Shown: one piece after another, positions 39,159 to 46,086 of the stretch
Numbering within the stretch: the stretch's first letter is position 1
Layout: each line of letters starts with the position of its first letter
IMG/VR virus record: IMGVR_UViG_3300044675_001825
Span: 13,457-77,456 of that record
Length of the DNA: 64,000 nt
DNA from: a virus
Strand: one strand, 5' to 3'
Made by a program: the position numbers and the translations under genes
The notes under the pieces: model-generated
What the model was told of the DNA's origin: nothing
The model's input: the letters and a program-made list of their open reading frames with translations, nothing else
The model's database searches: none

Positions 39159-40025
39159 ATGTCAAAAACTATCTCTATAAAGCTAACACAAGCAGGACCT
39201 ACTGCAGGACCCTTCAATATCTATGACCAATTTGGAAATGTGATAGCTGAAGGTGTATCTAGAAAAACTCTTGTGAGAGGCATAAGCTATATTGTAAATA
39301 ATGATGTAACAATCATCACTATTAAATCTACTGGTAAATGTAGATCAGAGAAGAGCGTTCCTGTTGAAGATATAACAGTATCGAATTACACAAGTATAAA
39401 GTTAGTTCAAACTGTAACAGCATGTGTATGGACACATTTACTTAATATAAGAAACTATAACACCTTCTATGGAAACATAGAACCATACATCATTGAATAT
39501 CCTTTTGCTTATAAGTTCCAAGATGAGATATTGCAGAACGTAGTTGACTACACTAAGGCATATGATTATTTTCCTATTCCTGATGGTGTGTTTAATGCTA
39601 ACACAAGAATAGAAACAAATGATAAATACTTCAATAAAGCTGTTCTATATAATGGACAACAGAGTTCTGGTCTTCTTGAGCTTGTAGCAAAACCATTAAA
39701 TAATTTGCAAGCATATAATCAATATCCTATCTTTAACGCTGATAGTAAAACCATTACATATACTAAGAGTGATAACTTCTATCAGTACAATACATTCTGG
39801 GCTTTAGAGAAAAGCTCTCAGATTCCATTATTCAATAGAACATGTGAAAGCTTATCAATTGATAAAGTGATAAATCAAGACAACATGGACTATGGAACAA
39901 GAAGCTTCAAGAAATCTCCTCTAAGAGCAAAAGAATTAAAAATTCGTCACATCTTAGATTCATCAAGTACTACTCATCTTGTTTCACAATTTATCCTGGG
40001 AGTAGCACAAATCTCATACAAATAA
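39159..40025 (+). CDS. GPFN domain fused to the probable C-terminal part of the muzzle protein
   Basis: N-terminal AGPFNIY domain, then VWTH..YNTFYG..PYIIE..FNKAVLYNGQQSSG. Confidence 0.7.
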   Translation: MSKTISIKLTQAGPTAGPFNIYDQFGNVIAEGVSRKTLVRGISYIVNNDVTIITIKSTGKCRSEKSVPVEDITVSNYTSIKLVQTVTACVWTHLLNIRNYNTFYGNIEPYIIEYPFAYKFQDEILQNVVDYTKAYDYFPIPDGVFNANTRIETNDKYFNKAVLYNGQQSSGLLELVAKPLNNLQAYNQYPIFNADSKTITYTKSDNFYQYNTFWALEKSSQIPLFNRTCESLSIDKVINQDNMDYGTRSFKKSPLRAKELKIRHILDSSSTTHLVSQFILGVAQISYK

Positions 40026-45500: not shown

Positions 45501-46086
45501 AGCTGGTCAAAGAGCTCTTGAAAGACAAGCTGGTTATAATCCAGCTGCACAAGCTAACATTGCTCCAGCTGCTTATAATGCAATAAACGAAATAAACGAA
45601 AAAGAGTTTATAGCTAATCAAGGATTAAAGAACCAAGTTTACACTGGTAACGTTAATACTATGAATGAAGCTAAGAAAATAAACTTAGCAATATTTGCTG
45701 ATCAATGGGCTAAGCAATCTCAAGCTCTATCTAACACTAAAGCTACAACACAAGCTGCTCTTAACTCTATTGCTGACAAGTATGCTAAAAACAAACTTGA
45801 GAATAGAAAACTTAGCATCTATGAGAACATGTATAACTACAGATTTGGTAAGAGTGGTAGAGCTCAAAACTATAACCCTTTTCAAATATTTGATACCACT
45901 GTAGGGGGAAGTGGTTCATCAGATAAATCAGGAGGATTGGCTGAAGGAAAAGAGTTCACAATTGATAAAGATAGTGTATCAGATGCTGATCTTGAAGCAG
46001 TAGGAGGAATCAAAAATAAGAATGGAGGATACACTAAAATAAAAACTAAAAATGGTTCAATACTTAGAGACTTCAAAAATTTATAA
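42529..46086 (+). CDS. Cargo/ejection protein with glycine-zipper membrane segment
   Basis: Start at MKAEF; GSTIGSTAGTLIGGPLGGAIGGFVGGVAG; GQSH..VEVERGE; lies after the muzzle gene. Confidence 0.75.
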   Translation: MKAEFLKIAKCKTVKQFYDKYPTEEAFFKAHPEAKASIKKAQFGTLIGGATPKQSVPKPISYMDYQEYRDEADKIVTGKTQEERDQEAYQQAMLAAAAKGGGGGEGGGGMGSLSSIMSMAGMAAGGSGGETLGGGTDSAMPDLAMSLGGGRNGRRIPVAQTGFVEGMGMDSENGYNVDNDGNVMDGSSTTGYDATSNGGGFMNTLSKLGKYAGPIGQIGEGLSMLKAGKQARLNAEQEAAVSDIAARASLTREEESKRRYVRPEDIQNTGEEFFPIYGVGTNVLTRNGGAIRRAQDGSYITGNPTEIQNTYSPEYTLYNDLGYEPLDDSNQVKQYYYGGRLHQMKAGGGVPWEQIGGIANNLGQSIMGGEDGGGKIGSTIGSTAGTLIGGPLGGAIGGFVGGVAGNLLDTNDRDARKAQAKTKNNVQRMALNSAFQGLNAQNNRYVRNGGDIDSYEDGGYMNPEYNPQLITMFGDHTAEDFADYANKYRAGGHLKSYTEPSERAMETYAMGGQLKTYWGGKAETMSHNPYMPGSGETVVFRGQSHNESDRKGNTGIGITYGESPVEVERGEPMFEMEAGGEVNPETGKPENTGVVFGNMPIDKKVAGQFNDPDLMEIANKYHGKKFKNVGIELAKQEAKQNKIIDKNTKILDSFKVETSLDKAKFAAMQANMEGADATLRNIANTKITLANYQNAINDAKEELSDVIGENLSAEDLARGYAKLDKDPVTKDAKWGGNIAKKAKDGITTTSETTLPPETFKTKREAEAKGYIQNPVTKVWERTIKKYSTKTDGSKAATAMDNIPKQSVDKGTGFAGGVTKEKFEEFKKRFPDYPGIDKLDPKDPKSLSDFKAWANTKAKEMGSTARIMDDPKTEKNPQGLPIFGDQFFSFNLDESKKATPAETEEVLTATVEEPGETPMPEEKAKFPWQAIGNAILPYFRPTDQEGLDMAQLYPEMFAMATNQVEPVPAQSYQPELIVPYDISLQAQRNAVIAGQRALERQAGYNPAAQANIAPAAYNAINEINEKEFIANQGLKNQVYTGNVNTMNEAKKINLAIFADQWAKQSQALSNTKATTQAALNSIADKYAKNKLENRKLSIYENMYNYRFGKSGRAQNYNPFQIFDTTVGGSGSSDKSGGLAEGKEFTIDKDSVSDADLEAVGGIKNKNGGYTKIKTKNGSILRDFKNL

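Follow-up and report, generated by a model that had tools for sequence, protein, structure and literature searches.

The 64,000-nucleotide (nt) stretch analysed here (the window; positions 13,457 to 77,456 of IMG/VR record IMGVR_UViG_3300044675_001825) is part of a 77,456-bp crAss-like phage contig, and the subject of this analysis is a pair of adjacent genes whose products, P0001 and P0002, are punctuated by short glycine motifs of the forms xxGG and AQxG. The genes are arranged as in a crAss-like phage: those for terminase, portal and major head protein lie upstream of P0001, and the muzzle gene, a 288-amino-acid (aa) open reading frame (ORF), P0001, P0002, a 909-aa ORF and a gp47-like 4631-aa ORF follow one another (table 1). 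This order is constant across 79 related loci. In the Bacteroides phage PhicrAss001 (crAss001), the cargo proteins C1 (gp45) and C2 (gp46) are encoded between muzzle (gp44) and gp47, a virion RNA-polymerase-associated protein; mass spectrometry detected C1 and C2 in virions, and part of C1 was resolved, on the portal and within the barrel of the tail (PMC10172136). Because P0001 and P0002 occupy the same position as this cargo block, between the muzzle and gp47-like genes, their order in the sequence supports regarding them as positional equivalents of the crassvirus cargo proteins, in agreement with a preliminary description of the window that had named them as cargo.

Table 1. Features of the cargo region in window coordinates; functional names of P0001, P0002 and the presumed cargo ORFs are putative.
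Feature	Position	Strand	Description
Muzzle gene, 1790 aa	33783-39155	+	PF25731, E 3.9e-34
Muzzle-C ORF, 288 aa, separate	39159-40025	+	phrog_15100 and phrog_37948 matches in muzzle/muzzle-C context (33783..40025)
P0001, 833 aa	40025..42526	+	Mosaic payload-carrier (polyvalent) cargo protein; conserved chassis and three cassettes
Chassis i (residues 1-94)	40025..40306	+	Zn ribbon, MQNGGWLDSY-YADGG tandem (40133-40174), NY..SPAWGGQ; ends FQTGG (40292-40306)
Cassette 1 (residues 95-249)	40307..40771	+	Helical, DUF6973-like; flanked by FQTGG and LQMGG (40772-40786)
Cassette 2	40817..41149	+	GEHLGGPF domain between AQNG (40817-40828) and MAMGG (41135-41149)
Chassis ii (residues 370-445)	41132..41359	+	MAMGG-SIPGAVGFTYART..AKKTKAS-AQNG (41237-41248), EMQYY..SQNGGWLDAY (41300-41329), AQTG (41348-41359)
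Cassette 3 (residues 446-726)	41360..42202	+	Small beta unit, hydrophobic DPINYVGAG segment, alpha/beta unit; ends DMKQGG (42212-42226)
Chassis iii (residues 727-833)	42203..42523	+	Beta domain (ITMKGV), MAKNG (42410-42424), LRQEQKGL..NYNKPQ tail, tag PGGWLSKYE (42497-42523)
P0002, 1185 aa from conserved start	42529..46086	+	C1-like cargo/ejection protein; about 14 motif copies; colinear orthologs
N-terminal four-helix domain of P0002	42529..42660	+	Ends KKAQFG; candidate socket for GGWLxKY; pLDDT 85-87; residues at least 90% conserved
AQDG joint (residues 302-305 of the long ORF)	43408..43419	+	Permissive, empty here; insert site in long relatives
Most conserved part of P0002	43864..44334	+	VRNGGDIDS-YEDGG, YRAGG, YAMGGQLKT-YWGG, VERGEP core, MEAGG
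909-aa ORF	46175-48904	+	Presumed cargo, without motif
4631-aa giant ORF	48920-62815	+	Presumed cargo, without motif; phmmer match to PhicrAss001 gp47

All motifs that the preliminary description had listed in P0001 are present at their places, and those listed in P0002 are visible in its translation. Compared with 1000 shuffles of each protein, the loose union of these motifs occurs 11 times in P0001 against 3.4 expected (1 of 1000 shuffles reaches 11) and 16 times in P0002 against 7.3 expected (4 of 1000 reach 16). Among sharper patterns, which were defined after seeing the data, the pattern [FYWML][QKAE]xGG has six copies in P0001 against 0.4 expected, and GGx-hydrophobic-xx-aromatic was observed four times against 0.2, neither count being reached in any shuffle. 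P0001 and P0002, 2,026 aa together, hold 26 copies of a sharpened set, against 8 in the 23,091 aa of all other contig ORFs of at least 80 aa; in this contig-wide count the capsid, portal, terminase, muzzle, 909-aa and 4631-aa ORFs hold essentially no copies. The enrichment in the two cargo candidates thus exceeds composition, and the scarcity of the motif in capsid and tail proteins, which had been remarked on in advance, is borne out.

In the non-redundant GG pairs of 121 relatives, the consensus has F, Y or M at -3, Q (also K or E) at -2 and N at -1, followed by W at +2, I or L at +3 and Y at +6; the residues adjoining the motif Gly are variable. AQxG is equivalent to this unit, but has Ala at -3 and one Gly only. 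A distance of exactly nine residues between successive units is by far the most frequent, as in the tandems MQNGGWLDS-YADGG, VRNGGDIDS-YEDGG, YAMGGQLKT-YWGG and YYYGGRLHQ-MKAGG. A repeat at the DNA level was considered and rejected, as the motif codons vary; the conservation therefore lies at the level of the protein, on which selection acts, and any microhomology between the copies would be a by-product.

The relatives of P0001 range from 239 to 1739 aa, and their genes always follow the 288-aa muzzle-C ORF and precede the C1-like gene. A word-indexed search returned 1,741 of them, most of which share only 11-60% of the length of P0001, at high identity. Chassis i is common to 90-120 of the 121 relatives, and chassis ii is the most widely shared, internally repeated stretch (coverage 120-140); both contain nearly invariant residues. 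Relatives carry inserts after MQNGG and after FQTGG of chassis i, and many different cassettes come after AKKT.AS-AQxG of chassis ii. Chassis iii has 3107 representatives at E<=1e-3 (50% identity clustering), nearly always at the extreme C-terminus, and carries inserts at AKNG in two loci (L016 and L022). In the first of these (L016:8494-9999), a cassette with HEISH (HExxH-type) lies exactly between AQDG and AKDG and separates the C-terminal beta domain from the tail, and several other representatives of chassis iii are split likewise. The minimal chassis is a 254-aa version (L023), which consists of GWLDNY...NYSPAWGGQ-FQxGG, then xMGG-SIPGAVGFTYART...AKKTKAS-AQxG, and then chassis iii, where the beta domain ...ITMxGV...VTEYPM-AKNG is followed by LRQEQKGL...NYNKPQPGGWLNKYN.

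The stretches between these parts are the payloads of P0001. Cassette 1 is found in about 33 of the 121 relatives and is missing as a block in P0054 and P0116; cassette 3 is found in about 40-70, and P0018, P0024, P0025 and P0038 are without it over a block of about 300 aa. The match of cassette 1 to PF22322 (E 3e-5, 24 bits) stays under the 27-bit cut-off. Pfam scans of 42 diverse relatives identified ART-PolyVal in three, a SprT-like domain in one and DUF6973 in six. The remaining cassettes of P0001 gave no match in Pfam, PHROG or NCBIfam, and NCBIfam gave none for P0001 as a whole or for five diverse relatives. DNA and protein searches of an annotated phage collection gave no match, and sequence searches of the PDB with P0001 and P0002 returned nothing useful. 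Comparing both AlphaFold2 models with the PDB by Foldseek gave no significant match (the best one for P0001 was cupin-like, E 0.09, in the C-terminal beta domain), and the protein atlas held no usable match for that domain. The P0001 family itself is supported as a polymorphic, cassette-swapping payload carrier, the cassettes of which include the ADP-ribosyltransferase of polyvalent proteins (ART-PolyVal), a SprT-like zincin and DUF6973. The preliminary description had proposed a polymorphic effector carrier for both proteins; this part stands for the P0001 family, in which 120 relatives cut at the motifs yield 138 segment families and 112 different architectures, and does not stand for P0002, which is conserved and colinear with few permissive sites.

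The gain and loss of cassettes can be followed at the motifs themselves. Among the 121 relatives, 21% of internal BLAST match ends lie within 3 aa of a motif Gly, against 7.2% for random positions; match starts cluster at positions -4 to -2, counted from the first Gly, and match ends at positions 0 to +4. Two caveats apply here: BLAST alignments readily run on into a motif that both sequences share, and the relatives are not independent of one another. Segments produced by cutting at the motifs pair end to end in 50.5% of cases, where random cuts give 2.5% and cuts displaced by 25 aa give 21%. In 292 distinct pure insertions, a motif stands within 6 aa of both borders in 46% (2% expected) and at one border at least in 88% (25% expected), and many of the misses are motif variants outside the pattern used. 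P0004 matches P0001 at about 99% identity in the parts that both have; it is without exactly the block from AQNG to MAMGG, that is cassette 2, and one hybrid AAMG is left at the site; the same block is present or absent at the DNA level in L066, L025 and others. Also missing in P0004 is the 13-residue unit SYADGGTMQEHQE (residues 46-58, window 40160-40198), so that single motif units, and not only whole cassettes, come and go. At the DNA level, 27 insertions were found between flanks of at least 85% identity, and nearly all of the 25 listed are bordered by AQxG or hydrophobic-xxGG at the left and by hydrophobic-xxGG at the right; in most of the insertions the shorter sequence shows an overlap of 4-23 nt or more. 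Two such events involve sites that P0001 itself has, MAKNG and the position behind MQNGG. The earlier suggestion that the motifs border swappable domains is thereby confirmed by match ends, end-to-end segments and insertions alike, and orthologs gain or lose domains exactly at the motifs in protein and in DNA.

P0002 behaves differently. Its longest ORF begins at 42505 and overlaps the end of P0001, and the start conserved in all relatives is the ATG at 42529, 2-3 nt past the carrier stop. Orthologs align with it colinearly at 46-88% identity, and the columns that hold the motif glycines belong to those that are invariant or nearly so. In long relatives (1376-1637 aa), a cassette of about 280-390 aa occupies the AQDG site, between AQxG and YQxGG, and one relative has further inserts at KAQFG and at the NGG..DGG tandem. 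Judged by these sequences, the P0002 family obeys the same insertion grammar as P0001, but its inserts are rarer. A stretch resembling PG_binding_1 in the family consensus was dropped, as Pfam scans of eight members gave no support.

The conservation of the motif regions does not coincide with predicted folding. With family alignments, AlphaFold2 is confident in P0001 only for the beta domain (predicted local distance difference test, pLDDT, 93-96 at residues 735-800), and the connector and motif regions, chassis i and ii included, all stay below 50 and are predicted to be disordered. In P0002, the most conserved part (table 1; residues 441-603), which holds five motif copies, has pLDDT of about 30, although nearly every residue there is at least 90% conserved. 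A sequence that is strongly conserved yet unable to fold by itself would be expected where segments fold on a partner.

A structural point of comparison is offered by gp45 of PhicrAss001 (Bayfield et al. 2023, PMC10172136; PDB 7QOG, PF25725), which cryo-electron microscopy shows in 12 copies, like the portal. It resembles the window's pair in that its gene stands behind the muzzle, it has a Gly-rich hydrophobic segment, and A[FY]GG-x-L flanks both of its ordered segments: these segments, 214-245 and 425-552, start at or just after a motif (AYGG 207-210, AFGG 425-428), and the next gp45 motifs stand shortly past the ends of both (PMC10172136). It differs in that a separate, highly mosaic carrier gene, that of P0001, precedes the C1-like gene in the window lineage, and the motif itself differs, with a hydrophobic residue at -3 and Q at -2 in the window lineage and an aromatic residue at -1 in gp45. 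Neither the motif nor cleavage is discussed in the structure paper (PMC10172136). P0002 has the gene position, the Gly-rich hydrophobic segment and the C-terminal helical region of C1. The similarity of P0002 to gp45 is weak and colinear, in three places; on the Gly-rich hydrophobic segment both share weak matches to C19orf12 and MccV, and the most conserved stretch of P0002 aligns with gp45 403-479 at a pairwise BLAST E of 0.038. This stretch is a candidate counterpart of the portal-bound CARG1 domain of gp45.

More specific information comes from the C-terminus of the carrier. Of 120 P0001 family members, 79 fit the strict pattern GGWL..Y at the C-terminus, and about 25 of the 30 other C-termini listed also end in WLxKY. 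The N-terminal domain of P0002 carries the sequence P-x-E-E-A-F, and it covaries with this terminal tag (GGWLxKY): in 57 genome pairs, with no exceptions, a tag ending in K-Y goes with E, and a tag ending in x-L or x-I goes with Q, in the P-x-E/Q-E-A-F of the next protein. A DNA pattern for the x-L tag found four contigs, all four with the Q domain. Conversely, a pattern for the Q domain found nine viral contigs, and all eight with a readable upstream ORF end have GWLD[TQS]L; in metagenomes it found 12 contigs, of which all nine informative ones have x-L or x-I. On a tree of the C1-like proteins, from which the first 60 residues were excluded, the state changes five times, at least four of them on well-supported branches. 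RNA pairing as the cause of the covariation was dropped, the K-Y and Glu codons being, by eye, not complementary. The covariation suggests docking of GGWLxKY on the N-terminal domain of P0002, with genetic linkage as a confounder. In Q-type phages the internal copies are unchanged, and thus only the terminal copy is implicated.

Our explanation, to which we assign a probability of about one half as a whole, is that of a connector-and-chassis carrier with a terminal docking tag. The enrichment, the conservation, the cassette borders, the DNA overlaps and the covariation of tag and domain are observed, and the place in the virion, the docking and the absence of cleavage are inferred. P0001 and P0002 would travel inside the virion and leave it before the DNA does. 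The chassis of P0001 would comprise the Zn ribbon with the N-terminal connector, the central connector, the C-terminal beta domain and the terminal tag, into which unrelated payloads are inserted. The peptides hydrophobic-[QKE]-x-G-G and A-Q-x-G would be turn-like or hinge-like ends of connectors that are intrinsically disordered alone, and they would mark the only places that tolerate inserts, the usual grammar being connector...AQxG, cassette, hydrophobic-QxGG...connector. Since the same few codons recur at both cassette ends, they could provide short microhomology for deletion, insertion and exchange between phages. The C-terminal GGWLxKY would be a specialised docking tag, which probably plugs into the small helical N-terminal domain of P0002. 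P0002 would be the equivalent of the portal-anchored C1, and the carrier would therefore be loaded, and later ejected, by piggyback; cleavage would not be required. A bolder version, which we hold only tentatively, is a plug-and-play cargo system, in which standard connectors allow any payload to be spliced into the carrier, tag and socket provide for loading and ejection in a fixed order, and the two co-evolve.

Several observations weigh against this explanation. A phylogenetically conservative test of the covariation, with 4 of 4 independent pairs concordant, gives p = 0.125, short of significance. The tag and the domain residue are only about 75 nt apart, and co-transfer of one DNA block could yield the covariation. 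Counter to a single block, Q-type domains resemble different E-type domains: that of L083 is closest to the window's own type, and those of L084 and L018 are closest to the FMKVHGK type. The internal GGWLD.Y copies keep their Tyr in Q-type phages, and they may have another partner or none. The low AlphaFold2 confidence may partly stem from mosaic alignments. P0002 gave no match to PF25725, the C1 domain, in hmmscan at E up to 10, where gp45 itself scores 222 bits, and it is therefore called C1-like by position and architecture only. A profile comparison of the P0002 family with gp45 aligned only the C-terminal helices (hhalign probability 65%, E 6e-5); the gp45 relatives found are at least 96% identical and of no use for a profile. 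The carriage of P0001 and P0002 in the virion is inferred from PhicrAss001 synteny. Finally, gp45 was not detected as an intact band among bands 1-10 of the PhicrAss001 gel (matrix-assisted laser desorption/ionization peak lists, PMC6235969), which leaves room for processing.

The last point leads to cleavage, which the preliminary description had proposed as one role of the motif. In this reading, a Gly-specific protease, of the phage, of the host or a zincin among the payloads, would cut the polyprotein in the head or after ejection and free the payloads. The motifs do lie in predicted disordered linkers at domain borders, and their invariant Gly, preceded by a hydrophobic residue at -3, is reminiscent of the GG-X protease sites of adenovirus and African swine fever virus (ASFV). 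Zincin payloads occur in some relatives (the HEISH cassette of L016 and the SprT-like domain), and zincin-mediated processing of polyvalent proteins has been proposed (Iyer et al. 2017, PMC5512222), but such cassettes are rare, the SprT-like domain being found in 1 of 42. By peptide-mass fingerprinting of the 2018 gel peak lists, gp47 with gp50, gp49 with gp44, the portal, gp26/gp22, gp25 and gp23 could be assigned in bands 3-9, and gp45, which was not seen intact in bands 1-10, is not among the gel-identified proteins listed in the 2018 paper (PMC6235969); the large PhicrAss001 cargo proteins and other large virion proteins, on the other hand, run at full size. In five complete relatives, all with terminal repeats, searches found no Peptidase_C48 (PF02902), S78 (PF04586), ClpP (PF00574) or S77 (PF03420), and no MPTase-PolyVal (PF18818) at E<=1; the structural module contains no recognisable protease and no protease PHROG, and a Crassvirales review makes no mention of a protease. 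These searches may still be compatible with an unrecognised phage protease or with a host protease. The position of the motif argues further against cutting: nearly every P0001 family member listed ends in (G)WLxKY plus 0-3 residues, several relatives begin with M..GWLD.Y, and a cut at an extreme terminus would release nothing. The residues beside the motif Gly are variable, and the AFGGWL of gp45 is part of a stretch modelled without a break (residues 425-552; PMC10172136). The claim of a protease site is thus not sustained, and cleavage is a live but less likely rival, which we consider improbable. If the joints are cut after all, an unknown Gly-specific protease remains to be found.

There are two other alternatives. 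Every copy could be a head-loading or threading signal read by one virion component (portal, rings, capsid interior or scaffold), the internal copies then being relics of fused, once separate tagged cargo genes. Copies at both termini and at every joint, connectors that are conserved yet unfolded alone, period-9 tandems suggestive of a repeated binding unit, and the fact that the gp45 segments docked on tail rings and portal begin at such motifs would all be in keeping with that. But the gp47-like giant ORF and the 909-aa ORF, both presumed cargo, are without the motif, so that the general head-loading signal put forward earlier is not supported; only the C-terminal copy covaries with a partner, and beside the carrier gene no stand-alone tag-flanked single-cassette genes were found, the extra small ORFs there being without motifs. 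We regard this as the least probable of the alternatives. Slightly less doubtful, and still unlikely, is that the motifs have no partner at all and are flexible Gly turns that let domains unfold and refold during ejection, kept at borders because recombination made the borders. N-G, D-G and G-G are classic tight-turn pairs, the motif regions are predicted coil, and the 4-23 nt DNA overlaps at cassette borders and the hybrid motif remaining after a deletion also speak for this reading. Plain hinges would, however, need neither the conserved hydrophobic residue at -3, Q or K at -2 and I or L at +3, nor nearly invariant glycines in a non-mosaic protein at 46-88% identity; the strict nine-residue spacing would be left unexplained, and the varying codons show that selection acts at the protein level.

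The system can be compared with several known ones. In polymorphic toxins (VENN of CdiA, DPxGL of Rhs, LXG), a short peptide marks the point of module exchange on a delivery scaffold, with one variable C-terminal toxin and a paired immunity gene. The likeness lies in the short conserved peptide at the swap point of a conserved scaffold; the difference is that P0001 has several internal cassettes, flanked on both sides, on a presumed virion protein. Moreover, its C-terminus is the most conserved part and its neighbours are conserved virion genes, immunity genes not having been specifically searched. In the substrates of adenain-like proteases (adenovirus, ASFV pS273R, poxvirus I7), which are virion core proteins, an invariant Gly-Gly is preceded at a short distance by a hydrophobic residue. 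This residue is the point of likeness, whereas its spacing is off by one here, terminal copies are present and the Peptidase_C48 search found no related protease; nor did the five complete relatives or the structural module provide the cognate viral protease of a processed polyprotein. T4 internal proteins, P22 gp7/16/20, T7 gp14-16 and P1 Dar show that injected proteins are brought into the head by short signals or by piggyback, the loading signals of these model phages being single N-terminal peptides or whole-protein contacts. The candidate docking system of the window shares the peptide signal or protein-protein piggyback with them, but would combine a repeated joint motif, a C-terminal tag and a socket on a neighbouring cargo protein, for which our literature search found no precedent.

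The closest class is that of the polyvalent proteins, multi-domain and extremely mosaic proteins delivered with the invading DNA, among whose domains are ART-PolyVal and SprT-like zincins (Iyer et al. 2017, PMC5512222). The ART-PolyVal, SprT-like and DUF6973 cassettes place the P0001 family in this class, with which it shares its mosaicism and the same Pfam families. Two or more unrelated effector or enzymatic domains are found at the level of the family, P0001 itself having only the DUF6973-like one under the cut-off, and a zincin-like metallopeptidase (MPTase) as a frequent processing module is not seen. It differs from the class as described in three respects: PMC5512222 describes no junction motif, linker or glycine signal; the payloads of the P0001 family sit in a fixed chassis with a terminal tag; and the MPTase proposed there as processor is missing in five complete relatives. 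Our literature search found no description of the junction motif, of the chassis-and-cassette grammar or of the terminal tag. The injected polyvalent class and the crassvirus cargo setting are known; the motif, the grammar and the tag would be new.

How crassviruses load and eject several megadaltons of cargo protein is an open question (PMC10172136), and these phages are among the most abundant known. The number of chassis iii representatives indicates that the system is large; at least 3,100 clusters with swappable enzymes at fixed joints would be a large and little explored reservoir of domains that may act, once injected, against the host or its defences. Should the joints and the tag prove to be a loading code, foreign proteins could be brought into phage particles by the same natural route.

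Regarding the neighbouring genes, the 288-aa ORF resembles the C-terminal end of muzzle-type proteins (phrog_15100) and stays a separate gene of 287-293 aa in all related loci seen (the window and L003-L081); to judge from these loci, the split between muzzle and muzzle-C is an old conserved feature of the lineage, not a recent break. The 909-aa ORF gave no match to the cargo protein 2 model PF25712, and its BLAST comparison with gp46 was not significant. The giant ORF gave no match in Pfam and PHROGs searches and matches PhicrAss001 gp47 by phmmer at E 1.8e-24, colinear over three stretches; it is twice as long as gp47 and may be a fusion of several RNA-polymerase-associated cargo proteins. 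Some relatives (L030, L032, L034, L066) have an extra motif-less ORF of 206-207 aa between the carrier and C1-like genes, and in others ORFs of 173-233 aa stand in the interval from muzzle-C to the carrier gene. In one locus (L033:8060-12604), the carrier and the C1-like protein are fused into a single ORF of 1514 aa, the junction of which is without the terminal GGWLxKY tag and without the usual N-terminal helical domain; it carries instead a small basic domain (H-K-G-R-F-T-A-Y ... F-A-K-N-A-K-K-W), which by eye resembles PhicrAss001 gp45 383-423.

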